From a virus (taxonomy: Duplodnaviria; Heunggongvirae; Uroviricota; Caudoviricetes): 34,826 nt of DNA. Where the stretch lies: IMG/VR virus record IMGVR_UViG_2877251553_000002; one strand, given 5' to 3'. This document shows positions 1-34,826 of this stretch, piece by piece; position 1 is the first letter of the stretch; each line of letters begins with the position of its first letter. A model generated the notes under the pieces. That model did not search any database. It saw only the letters and a program-made list of their open reading frames with translations, and was not told the origin of the DNA. The position numbers and the translations under genes were made by a program.

Positions 1-381
1 ATGCAGAAAAATGTGAATCCCGGCAGGCGAAAAGGCTGCCCTAATTATCCTCCCGAATTTAAACAGCAGCTCGTTGCTGCCTCCTGTGAACCCGGGATAT
101 CCATCTCAAAACTTGCTCTTGAAAATGGCATTAACGCCAATCTGTTGTTCAAATGGCGACAACAATGGCGCGAGGGAAAGCTGCTATTACCTTCTTCAGA
201 GAGCCCCCAGCTACTTCCTGTGACTCTCGATGCAGCTGCCGAACAGCCAGAATCGCTCGCAGAGGATCCGGAAACCCTCAGTATCAGCTGTGAGGTAACG
301 TTCCGGCACGGGACGCTCCGCTTCAATGGCAATGTCAGCGAAAAGCTCCTGACTCTGCTGATACAGGAACTGAAGCGATGA
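1..381 (+). CDS. IS66-family accessory protein TnpA (orf1), possibly 5' partial at window edge
   Basis: ORF MQKNVNPGRRKGC... identical to orf1 of copies 2 and 3. Confidence 0.8.
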   Translation: MQKNVNPGRRKGCPNYPPEFKQQLVAASCEPGISISKLALENGINANLLFKWRQQWREGKLLLPSSESPQLLPVTLDAAAEQPESLAEDPETLSISCEVTFRHGTLRFNGNVSEKLLTLLIQELKR

Positions 382-725
382 TCCCGTTACCTTCCGGGAC
401 CAAAATTTGGCTGGTTGCCGGTATCACCGATATGAGAAATGGCTTCAACGGCCTGGCGGCAAAGGTGCAGACGACGCTGAAAGACGATCCGATGTCAGGT
501 CACGTTTTTATCTTCCGTGGGCGTAATGGCAGTCAGGTAAAGCTCCTCTGGTCTACCGGCGATGGACTGTGTCTGCTGACCAAACGGCTGGAGCGCGGCC
601 GCTTCGCCTGGCCGTCAGCCCGGGATGGCAAAGTGTTCCTCACACCGGCACAGCTGGCGATGCTCCTTGAAGGTATCGACTGGCGGCAGCCTAAAAGACT
701 GCTTACGTCCCTGACTATGTTGTAA
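378..725 (+). CDS. IS66-family TnpB (orf2)
   Basis: 115-aa ORF MIPLPSGTKIWLVAGITDMRNGF..., ATGA overlap with orf1, conserved IS66 orf2 family. Confidence 0.85.
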   Translation: MIPLPSGTKIWLVAGITDMRNGFNGLAAKVQTTLKDDPMSGHVFIFRGRNGSQVKLLWSTGDGLCLLTKRLERGRFAWPSARDGKVFLTPAQLAMLLEGIDWRQPKRLLTSLTML

Positions 726-773
726 GCCTCTTTATCCTGGTCGACGCTGAATGAGCCTGGTAATATACCCGGT

Positions 774-2311
774 ATGAGCAGCTCACTTCCTGACGATATC
801 AATGCACTGAAACGTCTCCTTGCCGAACAGGAGGCGCTGAACCGTGCCCTGCTGGAAAAGCTGAACGAGCGTGAACGCGAAATAGACCATCTGCAGGCAC
901 AGCTGGATAAGCTGCGCCGGATGAACTTCGGCAGCCGCTCCGAAAAAGTCTCCCGTCGTATCGCACAGATGGAAGCTGACCTGAAGGCACTTCAGAAAGA
1001 AAGTGATACCCTTACCGGTCGGGTTGACGACCCGGCCGTGCAGCGCCCGCTGCGTCAAACCCGCACCCGCAAACCGTTCCCGAATCACTCCCCCGCGATG
1101 AAAAACGGCTGCTGCCGGCAGCGTCATGCTGCCCGGAATGTGGAGGCTCACTGAGCTATCCGGGTGAGGATGCCGCCGAACAGCTGGAGTTGATGCGCAG
1201 CGTCTTCCGGGTTATCCGGACTGTACGTGAAAAGCATGCCTGTACTCAGTGCGATGCCATCGTGCAGGCCCCCGCGCCTTCACGGCCCATCGAGCGGGGT
1301 ATCGCAGGACCGGGGCTGCTGGCCCGCGTGCTGATCTCAAAGTATGCAGAGCACACCCCGCTGTACCGCCAGTATGAAATGTACGGACGCCAGGGCGTGG
1401 AGCTGAGTCGTTCACTGCTGTCGGGCTGGGTGGATGCATGCTGCCGGCTACTGTCACCGCTGGAAGAAGCGCTTCAGGACTATGTGCTGACTGACGGTAA
1501 GCTCCATGCTGATGACACGCCTGTCCCGGTGCTGTTGCCAGGCAATAAGAAAACGAAGACCGGGCGGTTATGGACCTACGTTCGTGACGACCGTAACGCC
1601 GGGTCAACGCTGGCGCCGGCGGTGTGGTTCGCTTACAGCCCGGACAGAAAAGGCATCCATCCGCAGACCCATCTTGCGGGGTTCAGTGGTGTACTGCAGG
1701 CGGATGCATACGCCGGGTTCAACGAGCTGTACCGGGATGGCCGGATAACGGAAGCCGCCTGTTGGGCTCACGCCCGCCGTAAAATCCACGATGTGCACGT
1801 TCGCACCCCGTCAGCCCTGACGGAGGAAGCGCTGAAACGGATCGGCGAACTGTACGCCATCGAGGCAGAGATAAGGGGAATGACGGCGGAGCAGCGCCTT
1901 GCCGAACGTCAGTTGAAAACGAAACCGCTGCTGAAATCCCTGGAAAGCTGGCTGCGTGAAAAGATGAAAACCCTGTCGCGACACTCAGAACTGGCGAAAG
2001 CGTTCGCATACGCCCTGAACCAGTGGCCGGCGCTGACGTACTATGCAGATGATGGCTGGGCTGAGGCGGACAATAACATCGCTGAAAATGCGTTGCGGAT
2101 GGTCAGTCTGGGCCGCAAAAACTACCTGTTCTTCGGTTCGGATCATGGAGGAGAGCGGGGAGCGCTGCTGTACAGCCTGATCGGGACGTGCAAACTGAAC
2201 GGAGTGGAGCCAGAAAGCTACCTCCGCTATGTCCTTGACGTCATAGCCGACTGGCCGATAAACCGGGTCGGCGAACTGCTCCCCTGGCGCGTAGCACTGC
2301 CGACTGAATAA
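774..2311 (+). pseudogene. IS66-family transposase TnpC (orf3), frameshifted
   Basis: ORFs 774-1154 and 1190-2311 together match the intact 512-aa TnpC of copy 3; C-tract at 1079-1081 has 3 C versus 4 C in copy 3. Confidence 0.8.
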
Positions 2312-2344
2312 CACATCCCCGTCAATACGGTTCTTGCTGCACGC

Positions 2345-2701
2345 TTACGATTTTGCCAGCATGACTACCGGGGACAGGCGGCCCAGTGAGTCGGGACCAG
2401 CATTCCAGATACGACCGTTCCATTCAAACGTGAACGGCTTCGCCTCCTGTTCTGCGCGCCATGCTTCAATTTCCTGACGTCTGGCCTCTCTGGCCGCTTC
2501 CTGCATTTCTGGTGTCACAGTGAATGGGGCTATCTCACCCCATTTGCCGCTTTGCAGTTCCTGCCAGATTTGCTGACCCGTCGGAGCGACATCATCAGCG
2601 GTGGCTGTGTAGGGGACTGCCTGGTCCCTGTCGTCAAAAAAAACGTCACAGTCTACTGCGCCACTTTCGGTATAACGGGGATTAATGATTTTTTTAGTTT
2701 C
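2345..2701 (-). CDS. tail fibre assembly (Tfa)-like protein, 3' end probably truncated by IS
   Basis: In-frame GTG at 2701 preceded by GAGGAA; product has no recalled match but sits in Tfa position after a fibre gene; stop codon 2345-2347 lies inside the IS66 terminal repeat. Confidence 0.4.
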   Translation of the reverse strand, partial: ETKKIINPRYTESGAVDCDVFFDDRDQAVPYTATADDVAPTGQQIWQELQSGKWGEIAPFTVTPEMQEAAREARRQEIEAWRAEQEAKPFTFEWNGRIWNAGPDSLGRLSPVVMLAKS

Positions 2702-2714
2702 CACGGTGCATTCC

Positions 2715-3068
2715 TCACGATGTGCGAATAAAAAGCCCGGGCATTGCGCCAGAGACATGTGCATCCGGCACCCCGGACAGGGCGCAATATGACCCCGGTA
2801 ATGAATGCTCTGAACATCCCGTAATGAAAAATTGTGGGGATGCTATATACGTTCCGGTGGGAGTACTGGGCACTGAAATCCCCACCGGTCCCAGTCGTGA
2901 GCCTCTGTATGACTGCCCCCTGACAAGTCTGATGACTTTATCACCGTCAGCTTCTCCCTGGTACGCAGCAATAATCAGCCCGCCAATGTCAGGGGCTCCC
3001 CATCTGTTGCGGACAGAGCTCGCCACGATTCTGTAAATAATATCTTCTGTGGTTATATTTATTTTCAC
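2715..3068 (-). CDS. hypothetical protein downstream of Stf-like fibre gene
   Basis: 117-aa ORF with 4-bp overlap to the upstream fibre gene; no recognisable family. Confidence 0.3.
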   Translation of the reverse strand: MKINITTEDIIYRIVASSVRNRWGAPDIGGLIIAAYQGEADGDKVIRLVRGQSYRGSRLGPVGISVPSTPTGTYIASPQFFITGCSEHSLPGSYCALSGVPDAHVSGAMPGLFIRTS

Positions 3069-4123
3069 CCAGTCAGTCTGGATATGGGCCAGTAGCAGTA
3101 GCGGGTGTGATAAATGGGGCCGTTAATGCCGTAAAAAGTAAGGGATTTGGCTCTGTACCGCGGTTCTGTTGTCTCAGGGCGTGCATCAGTCCACCGGATG
3201 CTGAGCACCCCTTCAAACCGTGTGTCGGGTATGATGCCCAGGCGGCCAGCAACGGAATACTCACCTGGCAGCGCATTCCTTACCCAGGCCAGGAAATCAC
3301 TCTTAGTGTCAAAACGGATAACATCTTCAGGCAGAAAAGCACACCCAAAGCCGAATGCGCCGGGTATCGCCAGACGGCCTTTTGTCCGGTCGTAAATGTC
3401 GCTCTGTGCTTCCATCGTGGCCGCACTTTTCAGCCCCAGATTATCCCGGGACTTCTGTTGTGCCTTTTCGCCTGCTGCTGCGATTTCTGACAGATGGTTA
3501 GCCATTTTCAGAGTGCCGGTAAGCGCAGCATCAATGTCATTTTTGGCCTGTTCTGCTGCGCGGGCATAACCTGCGGCATCCTGTGCGCTCTGTCCGGCTG
3601 CGGCTGCATTTGCTCCTGTGCTTGTCACATCTTCCGCAGTGGCCTTTCTGTCCTCAGCTGTGACGGTTGCATCCTGTCTGGCATTCTCCGCAAAACGTTG
3701 TGCATCATCACGGGCCGTTGCGGCTGCCGCCACATCCTGCGCCGTCTGCTGTGCGTTTCCGGCTGCGGCCCCGGCGCTCTGCTGCGCCTGCACCACCATT
3801 TCCTCAAAGCGTTTGACGACATCCGGTTTCAGGTCGCCCTCATCAGGAGCAATCAGAAAGTCATTCAGCGTGCCGGGCTTTGAGTCCTCATATACAGCAA
3901 TGTCGCCAACGTTGTACTCGTTGTGCCAGCCCGGTTTCAGATACACACCATATTTTCCAGTCCGCGCATGGAAACAGTATTCACCATCGTTTCCTGTCAT
4001 CACATCAGCAACAGTGTGCATCACCACTTCCGGGGTGTTTACCCGGGATTTCAGAATAATATGGTATCCGGACATGGGGATACCTGCGCCATCAGTCAGC
4101 GCACCTGATATCACTACAGACAT
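3065..4123 (-). CDS. lambdoid side tail fibre (Stf)-like protein, short form
   Basis: N-terminus with DIAVYEDSKPGTLNDFL motif resembling the prophage side-tail-fibre N-terminal domain, followed by Ala/Gln-rich low-complexity region; much shorter than typical Stf. Confidence 0.6.
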   Translation of the reverse strand: MSVVISGALTDGAGIPMSGYHIILKSRVNTPEVVMHTVADVMTGNDGEYCFHARTGKYGVYLKPGWHNEYNVGDIAVYEDSKPGTLNDFLIAPDEGDLKPDVVKRFEEMVVQAQQSAGAAAGNAQQTAQDVAAAATARDDAQRFAENARQDATVTAEDRKATAEDVTSTGANAAAAGQSAQDAAGYARAAEQAKNDIDAALTGTLKMANHLSEIAAAGEKAQQKSRDNLGLKSAATMEAQSDIYDRTKGRLAIPGAFGFGCAFLPEDVIRFDTKSDFLAWVRNALPGEYSVAGRLGIIPDTRFEGVLSIRWTDARPETTEPRYRAKSLTFYGINGPIYHTRYCYWPISRLTG

Positions 4124-4475
4124 AGTTTTTCTCGCGATAAATTAAATCAGGAAGAAATTTCCGGAGAGGCGGGCCATTCAATGGCGTTGTATGAGGTTTT
4201 ATCAGTGATGACACTGAAATCCATCGCCTGCAGCGATTTCGCGTAAATGCGGTACGCTTTCAGTTTTTCCCGGTCTTCGTCGCTGATTAGCCCCAGCAGC
4301 AGGTCTTCTTCCCATTCCCCTGTCCGGGCACTGACCTGAGCCAGAAGGGCATCACGCTCATCTTCCGCTTTGAGTCTGTAGTCAAAGACAAATTCATCAT
4401 TGCGGTAAAACCAGTAACCCGGCGCGGTAATGCGGCGGTTGGCGGTAATATCAGGAACTTGGTAATGACTCCAAC

Positions 4476-4979
4476 TTACTGATAGTGTTTTATGTTCAGA
4501 TAATGCCCGATGACCTTGTCATGCAGCTCCACCGATTTTGAGAACGACAGTGACTTCCGTCCCAGCCTTGCCAGATGTTGTCTCAGATTCAGATTATGTC
4601 GCTCAATGCGCTGAGTGTAACGCTTGCTGATAACGTGCAGCTTTCCCTTCAGGCGTGATTCATACAGCGGCCAGCCATCCGTCATCCATACCACGACCTC
4701 AAAGGCCGACAGCAGGCTCAGAAGACGCTCCAGTGTGGCCAGAGTGCGTTCACCGAAGACGTGCGCCACAACCGTCCTCCGTATCCTGTCATACGCGTAA
4801 AACAGCCAGCGCTGACGTGATTTAGCACCGACGTAGCCCCACTGTTCGTCCATTTCAGCGCAGACAATCACATCACTGCCCGGTTGTATGCGCGAGGTTA
4901 CCGACTGCGGCCTGAGTTTTTTAAGTGACGTAAAACCGTGTTGAGGCCAACGCCCATAATGCGTGCACTGGCGCGACAT
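4476..4979 (-). CDS. insB: IS1 InsB
   Basis: 167-aa [19 protein letters not shown]... characteristic of IS1. Confidence 0.85.
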
Positions 4980-5173
4980 CCGACGCCATTCATGGCCATA
5001 TCAATGATTTTCTGGTGCGTACCGGGCTGAGAGGCGGTGTAAGTGAACTGTAGTTGCCATGTTTTACGGCAATGAGAGCAGAGATAGCGCTGATGTCCGG
5101 CAGTGCTTTTGCCGTTACGCACCACGCCTTCAGTAGCGGAGCAGGAAGGACATCTGATGGAAATGGAAGCCAC
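4898..5173 (-). CDS. insA: IS1 InsA
   Basis: 91-aa [26 protein letters not shown]... characteristic of IS1. Confidence 0.85.
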
Positions 5174-5471
5174 GCAAGCACCTTAAAATCACCATCATAC
5201 ACTAAATCAGTAAGTTGGCAGCATTACCCAGGAACTTCAATAACACTGGCGTTACGGGGTTCAATGCCTGTCACATCCTTACCGACCCACACCACGCGAC
5301 CGTCTCCGGTGTAAGTTATTTTAATTGTGTCGCTGGCGAAATTCTTCAGCTCTTCATACCAGTTTTTTCCGTCTTCCGAAAAAAGCCAGGTGACATCATA
5401 TTGTTTTGTCAGCTGATATTGTTCCACGGTTTTCGGATTGCCCGCAGTAATATTTTTTAAATGCAACATTG

Positions 5472-6856
5472 TTAAACACTCGCCACGTTATACCAGGTGC
5501 CATTAATCAGTTTCTGAAGCGGGCGGTAATACACGCCGTTGACGTTATCCGCTGAGTCACGGCCGGTATCCGATATCGCTATCCCTGACAGCCCGTGTCC
5601 CGAAGGTGCGCGAAATCTCCACGAAACGGTGTTACTGCCGGGGCTGTAATACATTTCATGGCCATACCGTACATCCTGTACCCCCTCTGTTCGATATTTA
5701 TAGCGGGCATCGAAGTTTCCGTAATTTAACGGAATTACCTGTCCGTTTACGGCGAACGTGATGCTGTTATCTGTATTCCTCTGGCTGAAAAAATGCCAGC
5801 CTGAATCATCGCCAAGCTCTGCAACAACAGACCTGGATGGATTACCCCACAAATAAAACGCTGCATTTTTCGTGGAGTTGTTGGCGCTGGATAACGTGAA
5901 TTTTCTGGCAGTTCCGGCCTGAATATTCTTAAAAGCAATAGCCACTCCATTCTGAAAGCGGAATACACGCTGACTATTAGCATAAACATCCAGAATACCG
6001 TCTCCATTCTGTTTAAATCCGGTGTCATTATCACCAAGAACAATTGAATTCCCCCCAGGGCGTTCTGAACGCCGATACCCAGCGCACCATTGACCTGCGA
6101 ACCACCGCCAACAGACACTTTATGCGACATGGATATTTCACCCGTCCGCAAATTAATGGTGAACGGGCGCAGGGGACCAATATCGCCATTTTCCCCCTGA
6201 CCTTCACTGGTGGGAATAAGGTGCAGGCACTCTTCCGAACGACGAAAAATCAGGCCAAAAGCTTCGTTGAAAATCCTCAGCGCATTAACACCACGGATTT
6301 TCAGCTCTCCGGTTATTTTATCGCCTTCCCGATGAACATAGCGTTGATCTGACTGCTCTTTACTGTAAACCTGAAGATTATCCCGTGCCGTCCCTTTATT
6401 CTGAAGGTCTGACAGATTGTTCTTCTGCCGCAGGAATATCCTTTTCGGATCCTCAAGAAGATTTACCCAGCCCGCACTGTCGGAGCCTTCAGGATCGGTC
6501 AGGTTATCGTCTGTGGTATTCAGCCAGACCGCTGTTGTTGCGACTCCGGCGAGAATGGCTCCTTTTGCATATCCACCAATGGCCCCCGCAAAACCGGCAT
6601 TATACGTGTACAAACCGCCAGCTTGGGCGAACCGTATTGCTGCGGTAATATCGTACATCAGACCGTTAAAATCCTTGCCGTGTGGCGGTATACCTCCCGC
6701 TGAGACCGCTGTCATGGTCACCGGAGGAAAACCTGAATCATACGCAGCATTACCGCTCTCTCTGGTCTGCTGTGTCGCCTTGTCCGGGATACGGTTTTTA
6801 TCTCCGGTACTCGCAAAGGGGACCGCCAGCTGGCGGGGTTTATCACTGGCCTTCAT
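5472..6856 (-). pseudogene. tail fibre protein with P2 gpH-like C-terminal domain, frameshifted at a C6/G6 tract
   Basis: ORFs 5747-6856 and 5472-5945 overlap in different frames; C-terminal ORF ([11 protein letters not shown]...[11 protein letters not shown]...[11 protein letters not shown]) resembles the P2 gpH C-terminus; frames rejoin if the tract at 6058-6063 had one more base. Confidence 0.7.
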
Positions 6857-7259
6857 TACGGGACTCCTTTAAAACTACTGAAACATAAACACCCGGCGGG
6901 GACGGCAGTGCACCCGACGACTGGATAATCGCCAGTTCTGCCAACGAGAGCGCGGACTCAAAGATGTAACTCATCCTCAGCCCACCATTATTCAGAACAT
7001 AAGCCCGCCGTTTTTTTCCGAACATAAATCTCAGCATCCGGTTAATATCCGGAACGGAACAGTCAGTAATGTTCGACATGGCTTTCATCAGTATCAGCCG
7101 CCGGTATACAGCATCAGACAGGTCAACAGTCCGGGTATCCGATTTTCCGTTGTAAAACGGTGCCTGATTAGACTGGCCCCCTGAATCTCCAGACAACCAG
7201 TATCACTTAAATAAGTGATAGTCTTAATACTAGTTTTTAGACTAGTCATTGGAGTACAG

Positions 7260-7625: not shown

Positions 7626-8488
7626 GCTTAGTCAGCCGTTGTCTCCGGATGTCGCGTGCGCAGTTGCACGTCATTCTCAGACGAACCGATGACTGGATGG
7701 ATGGCCGCCGCAGTCGTCACACTGATGATACGGATGTGCTTCTCCGTATACACCATGTTATCGGAGAGCTGCCCACGTATGGTTATCGTCGGGTATGGGC
7801 GCTGCTTCGCAGACAGGCAGAACTTGATGGTATGCCTGCGATCAATGCCAAACGTGTTTACCGGATCATGCGCCAGAATGCGCTGTTGCTTGAGCGAAAA
7901 CCTGCTGTACCGCCATCGAAACGGGCACATACAGGCAGAGTGGCCGTGAAAGAAAGCAATCAGCGATGGTGCTCTGACGGGTTCGAGTTCTGCTGTGATA
8001 ACGGAGAGAGACTGCGTGTCACGTTCGCGCTGGACTGCTGTGATCGTGAGGCACTGCACTGGGCGGTGACTACCGGCGGCTTCAACAGTGAAACAGTACA
8101 GGACGTCATGCTGGGAGCGGTGGAACGCCGCTTCGGCAACGATCTTCCGTCGTCTCCAGTGGAGTGGCTGACGGATAATGGTTCATGCTACCGGGCTAAT
8201 GAAACACGCCAGTTCGCCCGGATGTTGGGACTTGAACCGAAGAACACGGCGGTGCGGAGTCCGGAGAGTAACGGAATAGCAGAGAGCTTCGTGAAAACGA
8301 TAAAGCGTGACTACATCAGTATCATGCCCAAACCAGACGGGTTAACGGCAGCAAAGAACCTTGCAGAGGCGTTCGAGCATTATAACGAATGGCATCCGCA
8401 TAGTGCGCTGGGTTATCGCTCGCCACGGGAATATCTGCGGCAGCGGGCTTGTAATGGGTTAAGTGATAACAGATGTCTGGAAATATAG
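7583..8488 (+). CDS. insD: IS2 InsD (OrfB transposase)
   Basis: 301-aa [33 protein letters not shown]... characteristic of IS2. Confidence 0.85.
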
Positions 8489-8784
8489 GGGCAAATCCAC
8501 TGATTAAACGGACAGGGATCATCCATTACCGGGGTGTCCATCCTGGACTCGCTGAAGCCCAGGTAATTAAAATCGTCCTTTACCGTCAGCCGGCGACTGA
8601 CACCCACAATCTTTCCCCAGACATCAAGACCATACTTTTCTGCGGTATCGATGTTCCAGATAAGACCATAAAAATCACTGATAAAACTGTCGGGGGAAAG
8701 CGCTGCGTTAAAGCTGTTAATGAGGGCATTGAGTCGGGGCTGGCAGCATACTGCGCAAGCACAGTGGCAGCCACATTCTGCACG

Positions 8785-12922: not shown

Positions 12923-14938
12923 CCTGTTACCCCGCTGGAATAAACCGACACAAGCGCCGAATTCGTGATACGCCGACGTGCGTCATCGGTAATACCCTTC
13001 ACATTGTCCGACGTTGTGGTGACATTCAGTGTCCCGATATGCGTGGTTTCCGTTACGGTGGACTGCGATACAGGCGCAGGATGGAGCGACCGTATGGCCA
13101 TTGCCGCACCCGGATAAGGCAGGTTCGCCAGCACCCGCGGAATATAGTTGCGGGTCTCCTCCGGAGCAGCAGCCAGTCCCTTACGCTGAACATTTCCCTC
13201 TCCACAGTTATATGCCGCCAGAGCCTTAGCCAGATCGCCATGAAAAAAACGTATCAGGCCACCAAGTTTTCTCGCGGCGGCATCAGCGGCTTTTTCGGGA
13301 TCAAAGGCATCGTTCCCCCTCAGACCAAATTCACTGGCCGTCTTCGGCATGAACTGAAACAGTCCCATCGCACCAGCAGGTGAGACGGCAAACTGATTAC
13401 CACGGGATTCGGTGATCGCAACGCTGCGCAGCAGTCCGGGCGGCAGGTTATATTTTTCCTCCAGTTGAGACAGTTTCGGTTGCAGCCAGCCTAACAGGGC
13501 TTCCCCGGTCTTCGTCGGTCGCTGGCGGTTTTGCATGGCATTACCGAGTTTTTCCTGCGTCGCACGCATACCCTGTAGCCAGGATTCACCGAAGGCTGCT
13601 TCCCTCCCGGTTGCCTGAGAAGCCTGAGTATCCAGCATGCCCTGCTGCCATACTGTGGGTGATTGTGCCCGGGTGATGTTGCCAGGCTTTTCTCCGGCAT
13701 CCAGTTTTGTCTGATACGTCTCCATCTCTTTCTTATTGAAAAAGAAAGTCCCGTCTGAAGCCCAGAAAAAACCATGTGAATCCAGCCAGTCCTTATTTTC
13801 CCTGCCAACAATGGATGTCAGTAATCCGTCAACAACCGGGTAAAGCGCCGTTATCGCAAAAAGAAGGCCTCCGGGGCCACTGAGGGCTTTTGTCAGCCCC
13901 CGCACCCATGACGCCACTTTCAGCCCGATCAGCGTAATAATGACATTCTGCCAGCCCCCAGTTCTCCGGCAGCCTTATTCGCTAGGGAGGCCACTGACTC
14001 AACGTCATTCAGAAATGTGGTGATAAACCTGTTCACTTCCTCCGGATGTTGCTGCATCCAGTCACCGAGTGTCTCCAGCCAGTGGCTGAGCTTCAGCGCG
14101 TACGGCATCAACGCGGTGCTAATCGTCATCCCGATGCCGGACCAGGTCTGATCGAGCTCAACAAGCTCTTTTCGTAGCTTACGGGCCAGCGCTGTACGCC
14201 CCGGCGTAACCTGCGAACGGGAAGTAAATTCGTCCACATCTTTCAGCGCATGACCGGAGCCAAGAAACTGCTGTCCGGCATAACTGAAGCCCAGCGCGTT
14301 GCCGTAGGCAGTTTGTTCGGACTTTGTCAGTCGCGGAAAAATAACCGCCAGCTTGCGCATGATGGCTTCAGTGCTGTCAGTATTTAAATCAACACTAATG
14401 CCCGCCCTGGCTGCAACCTGAAACAAATCCTGTAACACAGGATCAAAGGACCTTCCGGCTCTGAAGGCCGCTTTTGCATTTGCAAGCCGGGAAAATGCCC
14501 CAGACATTTCCCCTTCATCAACATTATTTGCCCGCGCAGCCCGTAACCATCCGTCCAGATTTCTGGCCTTCATGCCAAAAGCATCGGATTCCACGGACAG
14601 ACGGTTCAGATCACGGGCAAAACCTGTTACCAGGTTCTTCAGCCCCCCAGCGTCAGACTGACACCCGCAAGAGCCAGAATCTCGCTACGGATTCCTGAAA
14701 AAAAACGGGACGCCCGTTTCCCGGCATCTTCCATTCGACGGGCCGTTTTATCAGCATCTTTTCCGGTTTTTTCCAGTGATTCACTGGTTTTCTTCTGTCC
14801 CTGACTGAATGTGTCAGCGACACCTTCCATCACCGTCGTGAGCCGGTTAAGGGCAGCATGTACTGCCTGTTCCCCGGCAGTAAAGTCCCTGTCATCAATC
14901 CCGAGGGACAGAACAAGCTCATCAAGTACCTGCGCCAT
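12919..14938 (-). pseudogene. tail tape measure protein with C-terminal lytic transglycosylase (SLT) domain, split over three frames
   Basis: ORFs 14639-14938, 13929-14594 and 12919-13917 are consecutive in different frames; the last has an SLT-like signature (ESRGNQFAVSPAGAMGLFQFMP...AAYNCGEGNV). Confidence 0.55.
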
Positions 14939-15549: not shown

Positions 15550-15887
15550 CAGTTAAAAACCTCCGGAGTAATGGTTTCCCACTCAATAACCGCCTGCCCT
15601 GGCTGCAACGTACGAGCTGCATCAGGCAGCGCTTTCCATTGTTTGAGTACGCCATTCACGCAGGTATATTTACGGCCAATCGCCGGAAGCAGGACGACAG
15701 CGTTACAACGGAATACAGCCCGACTGGCCCGGATGTGGTTGACCAGGTATCAAAAATATCCCGGCTGGGGGAATCCGGCATGATATGAAACGTCTGGATA
15801 ATGTTGCTGTACACAAATCCCGCGGACAGTTTGGTAATGCTGCCAACTTACTGATTTAGTGTATGATGGTGATTTTAAGGTGCTTGC

Positions 15888-16163
15888 GTGGCTTCCATTT
15901 CCATCAGATGTCCTTCCTGCTCCGCTACTGAAGGCGTGGTGCGTAACGGCAAAAGCACTGCCGGACATCAGCGCTATCTCTGCTCTCATTGCCGTAAAAC
16001 ATGGCAACTACAGTTCACTTACACCGCCTCTCAGCCCGGTACGCACCAGAAAATCATTGATATGGCCATGAATGGCGTCGGATGTCGCGCCAGTGCACGC
16101 ATTATGGGCGTTGACCTCAACACGGTTTTCCGTCACTTAAAAAACTCAGGCCGCAGTCGGTAA
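15888..16163 (+). CDS. insA: IS1 InsA
   Basis: 91-aa ORF, two substitutions relative to the copy at 4898-5173. Confidence 0.85.
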
Positions 16164-16189
16164 CCTCGCGCATACAACCGGGCAGTGAT

Positions 16190-16585
16190 GTGATTGTCTG
16201 CGCTGAAATGGACGAACAGTGGGGCTACGTCGGTGCTAAATCACGTCAGCGCTGGCTGTTTTACGCGTATGACAGGATACGGAGGACGGTTGTGGCGCAC
16301 GTCTTCGGTGAACGCACTCTGGCCACACTGGAGCGTCTTCTGAGCCTGCTGTCGGCCTTTGAGGTCGTGGTATGGATGACGGATGGCTGGCCGCTGTATG
16401 AATCACGCCTGAAGGGAAAGCTGCACGTTATCAGCAAGCGTTACACTCAGCGCATTGAGCGACATAATCTGAATCTGAGACAACATCTGGCAAGGCTGGG
16501 ACGGAAGTCACTGTCGTTCTCAAAATCGGTGGAGCTGCATGACAAGGTCATCGGGCATTATCTGAACATAAAACACTATCAGTAA
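16190..16585 (+). CDS. insB: IS1 InsB (N-terminal region carries a TGG to TGA change relative to copy 1)
   Basis: 131-aa ORF matching the C-terminal 131 aa of InsB; the upstream in-frame segment has a stop at codon 11. Confidence 0.7.
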
Positions 16586-17949
16586 GTTGGAGTCATTACC
16601 GACAGTTTACCGTCAATACCGCGGGCAGTTTCCGCCAGTACCAGTGGATCGGTGCCATAAACGTTATCTGTTGCAAATCCCTGAAGTCGTACGCCGGAGG
16701 GATACAGATTATTCACTGTCAGCGTGATAATGGCATCCGCCGCAGTGATGGTGTTGTTGTTACCCGACATTTACTGGACCTCCGTGGATGCAATAACAAG
16801 TTTCTGGATACTACCGCCGTCACAGTACCAGAGCGTACAGGACGGACTGCTACGGGTTGCCCGCAAAGAGGGAAGCATATCGCCGATATACAGGTAATAG
16901 CCGGTGGCAAACAACGTTGAAGAAACATCTGCCTCCACAACATTGTTAATCTGTTTCTTCTGCGCCTCCGTCAGTGTCACCCCTTCACGGATCCCTCCCC
17001 AGCGTTTGTACTGCTGGATAACGTCACTCATTGACGCTGCAACCAGCGCCCGCCCTTCATTGTTGTAGGGGACCGTCTGGTTTGACTTGAATAATGCGAT
17101 CACCGCCCCTGCAAACTGGCATTCAGCCAGATTTGCCCGCAGAAACTGTCCAGCCATTTAAAATCACCGGTAATAGTGCCATCCGCCCAGTAATCTTCCA
17201 CCACACTGTTTTCCGCATATTTTCCGTAGAAATTGTAACCTGCGGCGATCAGCGCATCATAATCGCTGCCACTGGTAACATCAGCGGCCAGCCCCTCATA
17301 CTCGCGGAACTTGAATGATACACGCCCCTCTGGTCGGATAAAATCAAGGCACGCTGCATACCCCAGTACCGCTGCAGCCCGGTTACCATCAGTCGCGAAA
17401 ACAGGTACAACAGAGCTGTAGTTATTGACAGCAATTATCTGGTAAGCGATGTGTTCAGTACTGCCTTTTACTCTGGCGTTGCCGCTGGTTGTCCATGCCA
17501 CATAAAAGTAACGCTTGCCCTGCCCGTTTGCCCATGCAGAAAACGCCAGGTGTTGCTCGTCAGTGACCTCAGATACCGTGGAAAAACCCGCCCATTGCTG
17601 GGAAGCGGCCTTAATGGCTGCCATTGTGTCAGGGACATCAGATACAGGCGCGCCCCGGGATATCACCGCACCGGTGTTACTGGTCATCTTCAGGAGTTCT
17701 GCTGCCGATCCACTGCCGAACGTTATCGTGGTACTCCCGGGTTTCGCCCCGGCGACAGTAATGACAAAAGCATTCTGTGTGGTATCGAATACCACTGTAG
17801 CCACTGCTGCGGTCAGCGCTGTCTGTAGTGCCGTTGCAGCAGCGGCGAAGCTGGCGACACCGTTAAAATTCACTTCAATGCTGACGCTTTTCCCGTTAAT
17901 ACTCAGCATCAGCGTAAGCGTGCAGCAAGAACCGTATTGACGGGATGTG

Positions 17950-19487
17950 TTATTCAGTCGGCAGTGCTACGCGCCAGGGGAGCAGTTCGCCGACCCGGTT
18001 TATCGGCCAGTCGGCTATGACGTCAAGTACATAGCGGAGGTAGCTTTCTGGCTCCACTCCGTTCAGTTTGCACGTCCCGATCAGGCTGTACAGCAGCGCT
18101 CCCCGCTCTCCTCCATGATCCGAACCGAAGAACAGGTAGTTTTTGCGGCCCAGACTGACCATCCGCAACGCATTTTCAGCGATGTTATTGTCCGCCTCAG
18201 CCCAGCCATCATCTGCATAGTACGTCAGCGCCGGCCACTGGTTCAGGGCGTATGCGAACGCTTTCGCCAGTTCTGAGTGTCGCGACAGGGTTTTCATCTT
18301 TTCACGCAGCCAGCTTTCCAGGGATTTCAGCAGCGGTTTCGTTTTCAACTGACGTTCGGCAAGGCGCTGCTCCGCCGTCATTCCCCTTATCTCTGCCTCG
18401 ATGGCGTACAGTTCGCCGATCCGTTTCAGCGCTTCCTCCGTCAGGGCTGACGGGGTGCGAACGTGCACATCGTGGATTTTACGGCGGGCGTGAGCCCAAC
18501 AGGCGGCTTCCGTTATCCGGCCATCCCGGTACAGCTCGTTGAACCCGGCGTATGCATCCGCCTGCAGTACACCACTGAACCCCGCAAGATGGGTCTGCGG
18601 ATGGATGCCTTTTCTGTCCGGGCTGTAAGCGAACCACACCGCCGGCGCCAGCGTTGACCCGGCGTTACGGTCGTCACGAACGTAGGTCCATAACCGCCCG
18701 GTCTTCGTTTTCTTATTGCCTGGCAACAGCACCGGGACAGGCGTGTCATCGCATGGAGCTTACCGTCAGTCAGCACATAGTCCTGAAGCGCTTCTTCCAG
18801 CGGTGACAGTAGCCGGCAGCATGCATCCACCCAGCCCGACAGCAGTGAACGACTCAGCTCCACGCCCTGGCGGCCGTACATTTCAGACTGGCGGTACAGC
18901 GGGGTGTGCTCTGCATACTTTGAGATCAGCACGCGGGCCAGCAGCCCCGGTCCTGCGATACCCCGCTCGATGGGCCGTGAAGGCGCGGGGGCCTGCACGA
19001 TGGCATTGCACTGAGTACAGGCATGCTTTTCACGTACAGTCCGGATAACCCGGAAGACGCTGCGCATCAACTCCAGCTGTTCGGCGGCATCCTCACCCGG
19101 ATAGCTCAGTGAGCCTCCACATTCCGGGCAGCATGACGCTGCCGGCAGCAGCCGTTTTTCATCGCGGGGGAGTGATTCGGGGAACGGTTTGCGGGTGCGG
19201 GTTTGACGCAGCGGGCGCTGCACGGCCGGGTCGTCAACCCGACCGGTAAGGGTATCACTTTCTTTCTGAAGTGCCTTCAGGTCAGCTTCCATCTGTGCGA
19301 TACGACGGGAGACTTTTTCGGAGCGGCTGCCGAAGTTCATCCGGCGCAGCTTATCCAGCTGTGCCTGCAGATGGTCTATTTCGCGTTCACGCTCGTTCAG
19401 CTTTTCCAGCAGGGCACGGTTCAGCGCCTCCTGTTCGGCAAGGAGACGTTTCAGTGCATTGATATCGTCAGGAAGTGAGCTGCTCAT
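17950..19487 (-). pseudogene. IS66-family transposase TnpC, frameshifted
   Basis: ORFs 18513-19487 and 17950-18732 match the intact copy-3 TnpC; 1-bp deletion near 18750 (GTCATCGCATGG versus GTCATCAGCATGG). Confidence 0.8.
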
Positions 19488-19535
19488 ACCGGGTATATTA
19501 CCAGGCTCATTCAGCGTCGACCAGGATAAAGAGGC

Positions 19536-19883
19536 TTACAACATAGTCAGGGACGTAAGCAGTCTTTTAGGCTGCCGCCAGTCGATACCTTCAAGGAGCA
19601 TCGCCAGCTGTGCCGGTGTGAGGAACACTTTGCCATCCCGGGCTGACGGCCAGGCGAAGCGGCCGCGCTCCAGCCGTTTGGTCAGCAGACACAGTCCATC
19701 GCCGGTAGACCAGAGGAGCTTTACCTGACTGCCATTACGCCCACGGAAGATAAAAACGTGACCTGACATCGGAGCGTCTTTCAGCGTCGTCTGCACCTTT
19801 GCCGCCAGGCCGTTGAAGCCATTTCTCATATCGGTGATACCGGCAACCAGCCAAATTTTGGTCCCGGAAGGTAACGGGATCAT
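19536..19883 (-). CDS. IS66-family TnpB (orf2)
   Basis: 115-aa ORF, one substitution relative to the other copies. Confidence 0.85.
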   Translation of the reverse strand: MIPLPSGTKIWLVAGITDMRNGFNGLAAKVQTTLKDAPMSGHVFIFRGRNGSQVKLLWSTGDGLCLLTKRLERGRFAWPSARDGKVFLTPAQLAMLLEGIDWRQPKRLLTSLTML

Positions 19884-20281
19884 CGCTTCAGTTCCTGTAT
19901 CAGCAGAGTCAGGAGCTTTTCGCTGACATTGCCATTGAAGCGGAGCGTCCCGTGCCGGAACGTTACCTCACAGCTGATACTGAGGGTTTCCGGATCCTCT
20001 GCGAGCGATTCTGGCTGTTCGGCAGCTGCATCGAGAGTCACAGGAAGTAGCTGGGGGCTCTCTGAAGAAGGTAATAGCAGCTTTCCCTCGCGCCATTGTT
20101 GTCGCCATTTGAACAACAGATTGGCGTTAATGCCATTTTCAAGAGCAAGTTTTGAGATGGATATCCCGGGTTCACAGGAGGCAGCAACGAGCTGCTGTTT
20201 AAATTCGGGAGGATAATTAGGGCAGCCTTTTCGCCTGCCGGGATTCACATTTTTCTGCATATCTGACACTTTGGTTCCCAC
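19880..20281 (-). CDS. IS66-family TnpA (orf1)
   Basis: 133-aa ORF MGTKVSDMQKNV...; true start may be the internal Met at 20260. Confidence 0.8.
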   Translation of the reverse strand: MGTKVSDMQKNVNPGRRKGCPNYPPEFKQQLVAASCEPGISISKLALENGINANLLFKWRQQWREGKLLLPSSESPQLLPVTLDAAAEQPESLAEDPETLSISCEVTFRHGTLRFNGNVSEKLLTLLIQELKR

Positions 20282-20681
20282 TACTTATTTGGTGGACACC
20301 ACTTTGTCTAATTCGTCAGATTCTGACCAGACGGTTCAGGCTGTACGCTTACGCATCAGCGTGCCGGAAAGTTTTTGTAGCTGTTCAACAGTCGCGCCCT
20401 TAAACGAACCGCTACGTAACCAGGCCGCCGATGGGGCAGGACTGAAACGGGAAAACAACAATTGCCCCGGCGTCCTGGTGGCATTTTTGAAGCCCTGGAA
20501 ATAAAGCTGAGCGCGTGCGTACTCATCGGATAATGCACCAAAATACGCGGCCACATCATCCGGAGAGGAAAACGGAACCACAGTGCCGACCGGAAGTAAC
20601 GGATTACTGGTCAACAGCAGGCCGTTAAGATCGACGGCATTACCCGCCACAGCCAGCACACCGGGATTTATCTGTACATCT

Positions 20682-21107: not shown

Positions 21108-21213
21108 CGGGACCTGGTTCTGCTGCGTTCGTTCAATCCCGGCATCAGAAAAAAGCCCCGGTGATAATCACCGAGGGCCTGATAAAGAGCGCTTTCCGTA
21201 ACGGAGAGGGTCA

Positions 21214-21826: not shown

Positions 21827-22155
21827 CTTACGGAAGAACGGACGGGGGGAATGGTGACCGTGTGCTCAGGAATAACCACATCCTGAACAAAATTCCCTTT
21901 ACCGGCTTTGACAAAGCGGTGCCCGGTTTCTCCCGTTTTTTCGTTATAGCGAAAGTGGAGCGTCTGCTCACGGGCGGGTATGACCGCTCTTCCACCAAAC
22001 TCCTGAACTGCGGCAATATAAGCCACTGACGTACCGTCAGGGTAAGTTGCTCCCTCAAGAAAACCCACTTTGAGTTTTTTACCCAATGAAAGGTTCGCGG
22101 CAACCTGTTTCAGCTTCTGCCGGAACTGTTTGCCACCTGTGACTTTATTTACCAT
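21823..22155 (-). CDS. hypothetical phage head-tail/neck protein
   Basis: 110-aa ORF in a run of overlapping minus-strand ORFs. Confidence 0.4.
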
Positions 22156-22604
22156 CGACGCCCCCTCCCGTATCCCCGGTAATAATGCCCCGGATATCGC
22201 GAAGGTGCCCCCCCGGAATGATACTGCATTGAGCGGTATGGCGCTGTCGCCTGCCAGTAGTCAGCACCCCAGGGGGTCTGGAGATACCACCACGACGCAT
22301 CATTACTGCCGCTATTATCCACCGATACCGATACAGAACCTTCCGACGCACTGGTGATACGCCCCACCAGACCAGCCTGCCCGTCTCTCCCGTTTCCCAG
22401 CCCCCGCAATGCGCACAGATGCGCAACCAGCAGGAACAGAAGCTGTTCCCGCTCCTTCAGGTCGGTAACCGGACTGTCGTCCGTGTTATCCAGGTACAAC
22501 GCGGTCGCCCGGTTAAACACCGCCGTCAGTAGCTCCGGTGTCACCGTGGAAAACTCCGGGTACAGACTGACAAACATCCGACAGTCAAACGTCACCGTAC
22601 CCAT
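22149..22604 (-). CDS. hypothetical phage head-tail connector-type protein
   Basis: 151-aa ORF upstream of the neck/tail genes. Confidence 0.4.
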
Positions 22605-22609
22605 AGCGT

Positions 22610-23677
<1,068 letters not shown>

Positions 23678-23686
23678 ATGGCGACA

Positions 23687-23902
23687 TTATTCACCTCTCG
23701 CAGCCTTACGCTTATCTTCTCTTATTTTGAAATACAGATTCGTCAGATAAGTCAGAAGCCCCAGAAGCAGACTTCCCAGCACACCAATCGCAGCCCACTG
23801 TGATGGACTGACCTGATCCAACCACTGCAAAAACCAGTAGCCGGCACTGCCGGCGGAGGTGCCGTAGGCAATGCCCGTTGAAATTTTGTCCATGGATTTC
23901 AT
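23687..23902 (-). CDS. class II holin (phage 21 S / EssD-like)
   Basis: 71-aa protein [30 protein letters not shown]... with two hydrophobic segments and charged C-terminus, closely resembling lambdoid S21-type holins. Confidence 0.8.
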
Positions 23903-24194
23903 AGCCTCACCTCCGCAAATAACGGATGGCGTAGTTTTACACTGAGAAATGAAAGGGATTTGAAAAGAAAAAAACGCAAAAGCGGGCGAAACGATATATA
24001 CAGTAAGGAAAGCACTCTATCCAACAAACCACCCACAGTTAATCGGAATAAAAGCAGAGTGCTTATGAATGATCGCACGCCCGAAGGTTAGTATTTCTGC
24101 ACAGCAATTTTGCAAAAAAAGGCGATCATTCATAACTTAAACGTCTTTCAGTCACTCCGGGATTTCCCATCATCGCAGACTGAAAGACTCTGAC

Positions 24195-24269
<75 letters not shown>

Positions 24270-24272
24270 ATA

Positions 24273-24348
<76 letters not shown>

Positions 24349-24350
24349 GC

Positions 24351-24427
24351 TGGCCCACCACCGAGGACTCGAACCTCGCACCGTCAACTTAGAAGGTTGA
24401 TGCTCTATCCGGATGAGCTAGTGGTGG
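24351..24427 (-). tRNA. tRNA-Arg (anticodon UCU)
   Basis: Reverse complement CCACCACTAGCTCATCCGGATAGAGCATCAACCTTCTAAGTTGACGGTGCGAGGTTCGAGTCCTCGGTGGTGGGCCA; 7-bp acceptor stem, anticodon loop CTTCTAA. Confidence 0.75.
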
Positions 24428-24428
24428 T

Positions 24429-24505
24429 TGGTGGCCCTTGCTGGACTTGAACCAGCGACCTGGCGATTATGAGTCGCTCGCTCTGACCAACTGAGCTAAA
24501 GGGCC
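24429..24505 (-). tRNA. tRNA with CAU anticodon (tRNA-Ile2-like, or Met)
   Basis: Reverse complement GGCCCTTTAGCTCAGTTGGTCAGAGCGAGCGACTCATAATCGCCAGGTCGCTGGTTCAAGTCCAGCAAGGGCCACCA; resembles ileX-type tRNA. Confidence 0.8.
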
Positions 24506-24585
24506 GGAGGCAGAATAATAACCATATGTCATCACATCTGCAAACTCATCTGACCACCAGCACGTTTAACGTCCTGTGCCGTTTT

Positions 24586-25886
<1,301 letters not shown>

Positions 25887-26224
25887 CTGATAAAAGCGCC
25901 CTGTACTGGTTAGCAATAGCAAATTTACTACCAGCTGCTCTGATTTCAAGAAAGCTGTACACCTCCCTTATGCCTATATTTTTAACCGGAACACCACCAA
26001 AGTATTCACTTATGATTTTCAACCTCTGGTTGTGTCTTTTCATGGTGTTTGTGCTTAATTGTCTACGCTCTATTTCATTTCTGAAATTTAATATCAGCTC
26101 GCAGAATAATGTTACGCTATTACCTTTTATTCTATCCAGTAAGCTTATATGTTGCGTGGATAATAATTCCATATTTGCCGCAATAGCCTCATTAACTGCA
26201 ATTCTTTTGTCTCTTCCGATTCCA
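25887..26224 (-). pseudogene. lambda-family integrase, internal N-proximal fragment
   Basis: Reads ...GIGRDKRIAVNEAIAANMELL...NSVTL...AIANQYRALLS up to the IS911 junction, colinear with lambda Int residues ~36-160; 5' end replaced by an IS1 terminus at 26225. Confidence 0.8.
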
Positions 26225-26352
26225 GGTGATGACTCCAACTTACTGATAGTGTTTTATGTTCAGATAATGCCCGATGACCTTGTCATGCAGCTCCACCGAT
26301 TTTGAGAACGACAGTGACTTCCGTCCCAGCCTTGCCAGATGTTGTCTCAGAG
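26225..26352 (-). mobile_element. IS1 terminal fragment (~128 bp)
   Basis: GGTGATGACTCCAACTTACTGATAGTGTTTTATGTTCAGATAATGCCCGATGAC... matches the IS1 end at 4461-4590, then is cut by the ISEc8-like terminus at 26353. Confidence 0.8.
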
Positions 26353-26388
26353 TAAGCGTGCAGCAAGAACCGTATTGACGGGGATGTG

Positions 26389-27927
26389 TTATTCAGTCGG
26401 CAGTGCTACGCGCCAGGGGAGCAGTTCGCCGACCCGGTTTATCGGCCAGTCGGCTATGACGTCAAGTACATAGCGGAGGTAGCTTTCTGGCTCCACTCCG
26501 TTCAGTTTGCACGTCCCGATCAGGCTGTACAGCAGCGCTCCCCGCTCTCCTCCATGATCCGAACCGAAGAACAGGTAGTTTTTGCGGCCCAGACTGACCA
26601 TCCGCAACGCATTTTCAGCGATGTTATTGTCCGCCTCAGCCCAGCCATCATCTGCATAGTACGTCAGCGCCGGCCACTGGTTCAGGGCGTATGCGAACGC
26701 TTTCGCCAGTTCTGAGTGTCGCGACAGGGTTTTCATCTTTTCACGCAGCCAGCTTTCCAGGGATTTCAGCAGCGGTTTCGTTTTCAACTGACGTTCGGCA
26801 AGGCGCTGCTCCGCCGTCATTCCCCTTATCTCTGCCTCGATGGCGTACAGTTCGCCGATCCGTTTCAGCGCTTCCTCCGTCAGGGCTGACGGGGTGCGAA
26901 CGTGCACATCGTGGATTTTACGGCGGGCGTGAGCCCAACAGGCGGCTTCCGTTATCCGGCCATCCCGGTACAGCTCGTTGAACCCGGCGTATGCATCCGC
27001 CTGCAGTACACCACTGAACCCCGCAAGATGGGTCTGCGGATGGATGCCTTTTCTGTCCGGGCTGTAAGCGAACCACACCGCCGGCGCCAGCGTTGACCCG
27101 GCGTTACGGTCGTCACGAACGTAGGTCCATAACCGCCCGGTCTTCGTTTTCTTATTGCCTGGCAACAGCACCGGGACAGGCGTGTCATCAGCATGGAGCT
27201 TACCGTCAGTCAGCACATAGTCCTGAAGCGCTTCTTCCAGCGGTGACAGTAGCCGGCAGCATGCATCCACCCAGCCCGACAGCAGTGAACGACTCAGCTC
27301 CACGCCCTGGCGGCCGTACATTTCAGACTGGCGGTACAGCGGGGTGTGCTCTGCATACTTTGAGATCAGCACGCGGGCCAGCAGCCCCGGTCCTGCGATA
27401 CCCCGCTCGATGGGCCGTGAAGGCGCGGGGGCCTGCACGATGGCATCGCACTGAGTACAGGCATGCTTTTCACGTACAGTCCGGATAACCCGGAAGACGC
27501 TGCGCATCAACTCCAGCTGTTCGGCGGCATCCTCACCCGGATAGCTCAGTGAGCCTCCACATTCCGGGCAGCATGACGCTGCCGGCAGCAGCCGTTTTTC
27601 ATCGCGGGGGAGTGATTCGGGGAACGGTTTGCGGGTGCGGGTTTGACGCAGCGGGCGCTGCACGGCCGGGTCGTCAACCCGACCGGTAAGGGTATCACTT
27701 TCTTTCTGAAGTGCCTTCAGGTCAGCTTCCATCTGTGCGATACGACGGGAGACTTTTTCGGAGCGGCTGCCGAAGTTCATCCGGCGCAGCTTATCCAGCT
27801 GTGCCTGCAGATGGTCTATTTCGCGTTCACGCTCGTTCAGCTTTTCCAGCAGGGCACGGTTCAGCGCCTCCTGTTCGGCAAGGAGACGTTTCAGTGCATT
27901 GATATCGTCAGGAAGTGAGCTGCTCAT
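26389..27927 (-). CDS. IS66-family transposase TnpC, intact (512 aa)
   Basis: Single uninterrupted ORF; the only intact TnpC among the three copies. Confidence 0.85.
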
Positions 27928-27975
27928 ACCGGGTATATTACCAGGCTCATTCAGCGTCGACCAGGATAAAGAGGC

Positions 27976-28323
27976 TTACAACATAGTCAGGGACGTAAGC
28001 AGTCTTTTAGGCTGCCGCCAGTCGATACCTTCAAGGAGCATCGCCAGCTGTGCCGGTGTGAGGAACACTTTGCCATCCCGGGCTGACGGCCAGGCGAAGC
28101 GGCCGCGCTCCAGCCGTTTGGTCAGCAGACACAGTCCATCGCCGGTAGACCAGAGGAGCTTTACCTGACTGCCATTACGCCCACGGAAGATAAAAACGTG
28201 ACCTGACATCGGATCGTCTTTCAGCGTCGTCTGCACCTTTGCCGCCAGGCCGTTGAAGCCATTTCTCATATCGGTGATACCGGCAACCAGCCAAATTTTG
28301 GTCCCGGAAGGTAACGGGATCAT
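27976..28323 (-). CDS. IS66-family TnpB (orf2)
   Basis: 115-aa ORF identical to copy 1. Confidence 0.85.
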   Translation of the reverse strand: MIPLPSGTKIWLVAGITDMRNGFNGLAAKVQTTLKDDPMSGHVFIFRGRNGSQVKLLWSTGDGLCLLTKRLERGRFAWPSARDGKVFLTPAQLAMLLEGIDWRQPKRLLTSLTML

Positions 28324-28721
28324 CGCTTCAGTTCCTGTATCAGCAGAGTCAGGAGCTTTTCGCTGACATTGCCATTGAAGCGGAGCGTCCCGTGCCGGAA
28401 CGTTACCTCACAGCTGATACTGAGGGTTTCCGGATCCTCTGCGAGCGATTCTGGCTGTTCGGCAGCTGCATCGAGAGTCACAGGAAGTAGCTGGGGGCTA
28501 TCTGAAGAAGGTAATAGCAGCTTTCCCTCGCGCCATTGTTGTCGCCATTTGAACAACAGATTGGCGTTAATGCCATTTTCAAGAGCAAGTTTTGAGATGG
28601 ATATCCCGGGTTCACAGGAGGCAGCAACGAGCTGCTGTTTAAATTCGGGAGGATAATTAGGGCAGCCTTTTCGCCTGCCGGGATTCACATTTTTCTGCAT
28701 ATCTGACACTTTGGTTCCCAC
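28320..28721 (-). CDS. IS66-family TnpA (orf1)
   Basis: 133-aa ORF; alternative start at 28700. Confidence 0.8.
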   Translation of the reverse strand: MGTKVSDMQKNVNPGRRKGCPNYPPEFKQQLVAASCEPGISISKLALENGINANLLFKWRQQWREGKLLLPSSDSPQLLPVTLDAAAEQPESLAEDPETLSISCEVTFRHGTLRFNGNVSEKLLTLLIQELKR

Positions 28722-28818
28722 TACTTATTTGGTGGACACCACTTTGTCTAATTCGTCAGATTCTGACCAGACGGTTCAGGCTGTACGCTTACGTTTTTAT
28801 AATCCGGCCATGACATTT

Positions 28819-32970: not shown

Positions 32971-33042
32971 TGAAGTGGCACACTGAATTTGGCCACCTGA
33001 ACAGAGGTGATATGCTCACCTCAGAACAACACAGGTGCTCCA

Positions 33043-34826
<1,784 letters not shown>

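Follow-up and report, generated by a model that had tools for sequence, protein, structure and literature searches.

Three Copies of an IS66-Family Insertion Sequence in a Shigella dysenteriae Prophage: One Intact, One with a Widespread tnpC Frameshift, and One with a Probable Consensus Error

Three Near-Identical Copies of One Element

The window, that is, the whole 34,826-nucleotide stretch deposited as virus record IMGVR_UViG_2877251553_000002, maps exactly to positions 2263460-2298285 of the Shigella dysenteriae chromosome CP026825.1, a PacBio assembly. It contains a decayed ipaH-associated prophage lying between zitB and the gal/mod region. By repeat finding and three-way alignment, we identified in it three near-identical copies of one 2,441-bp insertion sequence (IS) of the IS66 family, numbered from left to right (table 1). 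The analysis reported here concerns the single-base differences that distinguish the transposase genes (tnpC) of these copies.

The element has the features of the IS66 family. Its three genes are consecutive, in the order tnpA-tnpB-tnpC. In copy 3, they match HTH_Tnp_1 (PF01527) for tnpA, TnpB_IS66 (PF05717) for tnpB, and LZ_Tnp_IS66 (PF13007), zf-IS66 (PF13005), DDE_Tnp_IS66 (PF03050), and the IS66 C-terminal domain (PF13817) for tnpC, all above the curated Pfam cut-offs. The tnpA stop and tnpB start codons overlap in an ATGA motif (GCGATGATCC, 376-385), as is typical of the family, and a short spacer separates tnpB from tnpC, as seen in copy 1. The terminal inverted repeats start with 5'-GTAAGCG and are imperfect, with 21 of the first 27 bases matching (left, GTAAGCGTACAGCCTGAACCGT; right, GTAAGCGTGCAGCAAGAACCGT). 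Insertion generates target-site duplications of 8 bp: copy 2 is bordered by such a duplication, and more than 12 further sites in sister genomes show perfect and distinct ones.

Table 1. Positions of the three IS66-family copies and of associated features in the window
Feature	Position	Strand	Description
Copy 1	1-2348	+	Delimited by alignment to copy 3
Copy 1 tnpA	1-381	+	
Copy 1 tnpB	378-725	+	
Copy 1 tnpC	774-1154 / 1193-2311	+	Split; products of 126 aa and 372 aa
C3 run, copy 1	1079-1081	+	IS position 1171; CCCC in copies 2 and 3; -1 frameshift after TnpC residue 103
Copy 1 right flank	2349-2356	+	GATTTTGC; one half of a duplication, the other half being found at a different IS junction in sister genomes
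Copy 2	17914-20352	-	2,439 bp; in a prophage tail-sheath-like gene (E217_gp31_N)
Copy 2 tnpA	19880-20260	-	
Copy 2 tnpB	19536-19883	-	
Copy 2 tnpC, N-terminal part	18513-19487	-	
Copy 2 tnpC, C-terminal part	17950-18732	-	
Missing T, copy 2	between 18751 and 18750	-	IS position 1603; GCTGATGAC changed to GCGATGAC; outside any homopolymer
Second 1-bp deletion, copy 2	17943-17945	-	IS position 2410; C4 to C3; right-end non-coding DNA, just inside the terminal repeat
Target duplication, left	20353-20360	-	GCTGATGC on the element strand
Target duplication, right	17906-17913	-	GCTGATGC on the element strand
IS1 end fragment	26225-26351	.	127 nt; directly adjoins copy 3 at its right end; matches the ends of the complete IS1 copies at 98% identity
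Copy 3	26352-28792	-	2,441 bp; complete
Copy 3 tnpA	28320-28700	-	
Copy 3 tnpB	27976-28323	-	
Copy 3 tnpC	26389-27927	-	512 aa; intact; four IS66 transposase domains

The TnpC protein of copy 3 is identical to a protein designated 'MULTISPECIES [Shigella]' that is present on 39 contigs. Copy 3 is the canonical intact element and is potentially autonomous, an activity predicted from its intact open reading frames (ORFs) and ends. In addition to the single-base deletions, the copies differ by missense changes: TnpB D37A and TnpC D161N in copy 2, TnpC S201Y in copy 1, and TnpA E67D in copy 3. The last of these results from a T at 28500 (IS position 293) that is private to copy 3, all of the roughly 45 other copies examined having a G, and the corresponding TnpA protein has an exact match on this contig only. 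An earlier description of the window made from the letters alone, the first-pass annotation, had considered TnpA and TnpB to be intact in all copies. Their ORFs are indeed open in all three; the sequences are not identical, as copy 2 TnpB (D37A) and copy 3 TnpA (E67D) illustrate.

A Single-T Deletion Interrupts tnpC in Copy 2

The first-pass annotation had also reported that a 1-bp deletion near 18750 splits tnpC in copy 2 and that a C4-to-C3 contraction at 1079-1081 does so in copy 1. The alignment bears out both differences in the deposited sequence; the splits are not ORF-calling artifacts. In copy 2, the native frame is lost immediately ahead of HADDTP, a motif at the beginning of the DDE domain. 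The resulting product is 324 aa long and retains 246 native N-terminal residues. In IS679 and IS66, tnpA, tnpB, and tnpC are reportedly each required for transposition. By analogy, a frameshift in tnpC should leave a copy non-autonomous.

The T deletion is found well beyond the window. At the copy-2 site it is common to five assemblies, and an identical copy-2 haplotype (579C, 1346A, 1603delT) occurs at this site in CP026807, CP026815, CP026832, and CP026825. It is also present in UYIT01, CP026834, PSST01, PSSQ01, CP026828, and CP026840, as well as in an older draft genome of strain CDC 74-1112 (EFW50046.1). Seven protein variants share the frameshift. The deleted allele occupies at least six sites, each with its own perfect 8-bp duplication: GCTGATGC, which is the perfect duplication previously noted around copy 2, ATATGAAC, ATTTAGTG, CATTATCT, GATAATGC, and TCCTGTGG. 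Because the deletion lies outside a homopolymer, is shared by five assemblies at one site, and recurs at these six or more sites, it is genuine, old, and lineage-wide. Copy 2 belongs to an old defective sub-lineage marked by the single-T deletion, with TnpC cut just before the catalytic DDE domain.

Alternatively, all three single-base deletions of the window, including this T, might be assembly artifacts and all copies might be intact in the cell. The indel error rate of the assembly is high, and UYIT01 encodes an intact TnpC at the copy-2 site. Yet the position of the deletion outside a homopolymer does not fit this view, and CP026807, which is the cleanest assembly, and four further assemblies reproduce the deletion at the copy-2 site; it is also found elsewhere in UYIT01 itself and in the independent draft genome. 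The UYIT01 element at the copy-2 site also differs at four single-nucleotide polymorphisms (SNPs), hence it is a different allele and not a corrected error. Finally, the repaired D161N TnpC protein expected from copy 2 was not found among 15 billion sequences. We regard a purely artifactual origin of all three deletions as extremely unlikely.

The second 1-bp deletion of copy 2, which the first-pass annotation had missed, is of another kind. Among the assemblies sharing the copy-2 insertion, it is present in CP026825.1 only, and it is probably a consensus error.

The Split tnpC of Copy 1 and the Error Pattern of the Assembly

The leftmost 92 nt of copy 1 lie outside the window. They are present in CP026825.1 and identical to those of copy 3; the truncation of copy 1 is the window edge, not biology. 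Its frameshift results from the contraction of a C run. Any -1 shift in tnpC codons 75-125 leads to the same stop codon and a 126-aa product, and 126-aa tnpC products with differing shift points are frequent in databases.

The non-IS DNA of the window differs from CP026807 by eight one-base differences and two substitutions in 10.5 kb. All eight are a G or C missing on the window side, in runs with a true length of 5-7. Among assemblies, such losses are homoplasic, their pattern not being tree-like. In CP026825.1, the contraction rate by true run length is 1/64 for runs of four, 5/15 for runs of five, 2/3 for runs of six, and 2/3 for runs of seven. A second comparison is provided by CP026807 and CP026823, which are free of substitutions over compared stretches of 20.5 kb and 12 kb. 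Of the twelve G/C-run losses of CP026823, two reproduce the copy-1 contraction exactly: IS position 1171 is contracted in CP026823 at two sites (an MFS-family gene and Gam/exonuclease VIII), and CP026807 is intact at both. We considered whether short-read polishing had homogenized CP026807 and rejected this explanation, as its IS copies still differ in SNP haplotype and the T deletion is preserved among them.

At the copy-1 site, UYIT01 encodes an intact TnpC. The repaired copy-1 protein, with S201Y, also exists intact (WP_046891813.1, on 6 contigs). Because the contraction is of the error type of this assembly, is without counterpart in the better assembly, and yields on repair a protein that exists, the lesion of copy 1 is quite probably a PacBio consensus error. 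The TnpC that copy 1 specifies in the cell is then probably intact and corresponds to WP_046891813.1, the S201Y variant. The earlier statement that only copy 3 has an intact TnpC is therefore true of the deposited sequence and probably not of the cell, the change in copy 1 matching the under-calling of G/C runs.

The opposite reading is that both frameshifts are real and reflect independent decay, copies 1 and 2 being non-autonomous and TnpC being supplied by copy 3 only. The deposited sequence holds both lesions, and several observations weigh against treating that of copy 1 as an error. The background contraction rate of 4-runs in CP026825.1 is low, and the 5-run contractions predicted from the flank rate are absent from all three IS copies. 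Contraction at position 1171 greatly exceeds that of other 4-runs in frequency; it is present in at least 12 copies from 5 assemblies, including one orthologous site in two assemblies (loci L002 and L005). Related IS66 elements drawn from different data sources (P0075 and P0084) likewise show a contraction of the homologous C run. The copy-1 SNP haplotype was found at the copy-1 site in no sister assembly, which makes a like-for-like comparison impossible, and the copy-1 call is drawn from a comparison of assembled sequences. Some instances of the 1171 contraction could be real. On the other side, at the two sites that allow near-identical genomes to be compared, only the assembly whose unique DNA also shows one-directional G/C-run losses has the contraction; the S201Y protein is known in intact form, and UYIT01 is intact at the copy-1 site. 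On balance, the reality of both lesions seems rather unlikely to us, and a consensus error in copy 1 remains the preferred reading.

Two other explanations were considered for the lesions. The many sites with the 1171 contraction could have indicated a proliferating defective lineage; this was rejected, as the sample was chosen by lesion product and the contraction is assembly-specific in near-identical strains. Recoding by programmed frameshifting or slippage was set aside at either lesion, GCGATG not being a slippery context and the C3 run being short.

The losses of the window also affect prophage genes. The one-base losses, all in G/C runs, lie at 13955, 14643, 15136, 17106, 21156, 21433, 21844, and 24705; in addition, a 4-bp CAGT present in sister assemblies is missing at 3069. 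A gene with an SLT domain, encoding 673 aa in CP026807, is broken into ORFs of 99, 169, and 332 aa in the window, and the sheath-like gene is split into 269 and 128 aa. The losses splitting these genes are most likely consensus errors, and apparent pseudogenes in the prophage are therefore unreliable. Just left of the window, zitB (7743-8683 in locus L017) is split into 174 and 139 aa by a C4-to-C3 contraction, the gene being intact (313 aa) in UYIT01. It is the sole flank example of a 4-run contraction in the CP026825.1 assembly.

The S201Y allele of copy 1 is also carried by pINV virulence plasmids of S. dysenteriae (loci L016, L045, L046, and L047), between ospC and haem-uptake genes. The copy-1 haplotype (1467A, 1480A, 2326C) differs from that of the CP176670.1 plasmid copy at position 750 only. 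These similarities hint at an exchange between plasmid and chromosome copies.

Swapped Flanks and Sequence Exchange between Copies

Copies 1 and 3 lack target-site duplications. Copy 1 is bordered by ACTTAACT on the left, in zitB and outside the window, and by GATTTTGC on the right, in a prophage tail-fiber gene. The reciprocal arrangement, with GATTTTGC on the left and ACTTAACT on the right of the IS, is found beside ybgS-aroG in CP026807 and CP026823 (loci L010 and L011). The two arrangements are the two products of a recombination between an insertion at zitB/ybgS and an insertion in the tail-fiber gene. The flanks of copy 3 are ATAAAAAC and TCTGAGAC, the latter on the right and belonging to the IS1 end fragment. 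In UYIT01, TCTGAGAC is joined to the GATTTTGC left flank (locus L038). Copies 1 and 3 thus lack duplications because IS copies in the region have recombined, swapping their flanks.

The copy-2 site reveals a second type of event. In UYIT01, the same insertion with the same duplication contains an intact element, which differs from copy 2 at positions 579, 1346, 1462, and 1573 in addition to the deletion. The flanks of the site show no substitution between the window and UYIT01 in 5.1 kb. When the copy-1 and copy-2 sites are pooled, the window and UYIT01 differ by 7 substitutions in 4,882 bp of IS and by 1 in 9,349 bp of flank (Fisher p = 0.003). Furthermore, all four combinations of lesion class with the SNP alleles at 579 and 2326 occur. 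Since the UYIT01 allele at the copy-2 site is different and the flanks are free of substitutions, IS copies exchange sequence after insertion, and gene conversion at the copy-2 site is directly indicated by these alignments. One point weighs against this interpretation: the difference between strains could in principle result from reads misassigned in one assembly.

The first-pass annotation had proposed that copy 2 either transposed before acquiring its lesion or was mobilized in trans. Copy 2 is indeed a defective element with a perfect duplication; the pair of scenarios is incomplete, as the third route, conversion, has direct support at this very site. Sequence exchange between IS copies at fixed sites also means that a target duplication beside a lesion gives no date for that lesion. 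Mobilization in trans is plausible, because the same deletion is found at sites with different perfect duplications. Identical full-length T-deletion haplotypes are present at two sites of one genome (loci L009 and L010; loci L024 and L026). They fit either transposition in trans of a defective copy with supplied TnpC or conversion of the whole element, two processes that are inseparable here. The T-deletion allele, which many S. dysenteriae genomes carry and which occupies many different sites, may have spread through TnpC acting in trans, through gene conversion, or through both. As lesion-bearing copies were sampled by a search for lesion products, their allele frequencies are biased, which is a further caution on this scenario.

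This distribution raises the question of whether the T-deletion sub-lineage is kept for a useful product, the truncated TnpC acting as a regulator or inhibitor of transposition or the two TnpC pieces reassembling. In favor of this idea, the allele is old, has spread widely, and is accompanied by intact tnpA, tnpB, and terminal repeats at many sites, and its truncated product retains the LZ and zf-IS66 domains and has no catalytic domain. Against such maintenance, missense changes are scattered across copies (D161N, M50T, A21V, D85N, S54G), as under neutral decay, and spread by conversion or trans-mobilization requires no selective benefit. Retention for a useful product is, in our opinion, very unlikely. 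We are equally doubtful of a bolder version, in which the allele would represent a successful non-autonomous IS66 sub-lineage, repeatedly mobilized in trans, whose truncated TnpC modulates intact copies. If it were true, the truncated TnpC, a DNA-binding half without catalytic domain, would be a natural inhibitor born of a frameshift.

Surroundings of the Three Copies

Among complete Escherichia coli genomes and plasmids, the flanks of the window have no more than partial matches, prophages of enteroinvasive E. coli being the closest. A literature search found no paper mentioning the accession numbers of these assemblies. Two complete IS1 copies of 768 bp (4461-5228 and 15833-16600), 100% identical and in inverted orientation, bracket a 10.6-kb prophage tail/baseplate module. 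Directly left of copy 3 in element orientation, at 28819-29597 on the minus strand, are a tnpA-like gene (118 aa, HTH_Tnp_1) and a tnpB-like gene (116 aa, TnpB_IS66) of a different IS66-family element. No tnpC follows these two genes; the remains of a second IS66 relative therefore adjoin or surround copy 3. Segments 24620-25887 and 32970-34237 form a 1,268-bp inverted repeat pair, 99% identical, encoding IS3-family OrfA and OrfB. Judging by how matching E. coli records are annotated, they are IS600-like; a third, partial copy lies at 22958-23613. At the prophage edge on the modABC side, the ORF at 33558-34826 (plus strand) has a called product of 422 aa in which a Phage_integrase domain is combined with rve, the integrase core of the IS3 family. 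The prophage integrase gene seems to have received an in-frame IS insertion or to be fused with an IS.

Interpretation and Comparison with Known Elements

We directly observed the sequence differences, the error pattern of the assembly, the distribution of the alleles, and the swapped flanks. Taken together, they are likely to be best explained by an intact copy 3, a truly and anciently defective copy 2, a copy 1 whose lesion is most likely a consensus error, and flanks swapped between copies. Without read support, a single-base 'lesion' in a G/C run should not be taken for pseudogenization, whether in CP026825.1 or in the sister PacBio assemblies from the CDC, and the same holds for the split prophage genes.

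The finding itself is ordinary: a known element of the IS66 family residing in a Shigella genome rich in ISs. Its biological weight is small, since defective and intact IS66-family copies and IS-mediated rearrangements are expected in Shigella. Abundant ISs, pseudogenes, and inversions with an IS copy at either end have been described in Shigella genomes (Hawkey et al. 2020, PMC7373316; Seferbekova et al. 2021, PMC8072062), and the flank swaps of copies 1 and 3 belong with such rearrangements. Both studies count insertion sites; in the text examined, neither resolves the IS66-family element into sub-lineages at the level of alleles (PMC7373316; PMC8072062). The former study also names 'ISEc8' among six ISs of S. 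dysenteriae Sd197 (Hawkey et al. 2020, PMC7373316).

Within the IS66 family, IS679 and IS66 are, like the Shigella element, three-ORF elements generating 8-bp duplications; they are different members of the family. The first-pass annotation had called the present copies ISEc8-like. ISEc8 of E. coli O157:H7 (~2.44 kb) has the same length, three-gene layout, terminal repeats, and 8-bp duplication, and is collinear with our element over the full length. However, nucleotide identity over the full 2,441 bp to the O157:H7 copies annotated as ISEc8 is 88.5-88.6%. By the ISfinder convention, isoforms share ~95% nucleotide identity or more, a level that these copies do not reach. In contrast, the element is 99.7% identical over its full length to a copy on the E. 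coli plasmid NZ_CP025893.1 and 97.8-98% identical to many other copies labeled 'IS66-like element ISEc22 family transposase' in PGAP annotations of E. coli and Shigella. The same family name is borne by the TnpC of copy 3, annotated as 'MULTISPECIES: IS66-like element ISEc22 family transposase [Shigella]'. This likeness is judged on PGAP-labeled copies rather than on the ISfinder type sequence, and many labeled copies align from position 360 onward only, the left end and tnpA region differing in part of the family. By its sequence, the element is best designated ISEc22-like, with ISEc8 as a more distant, collinear relative and 'ISEc8-like' as a loose name.

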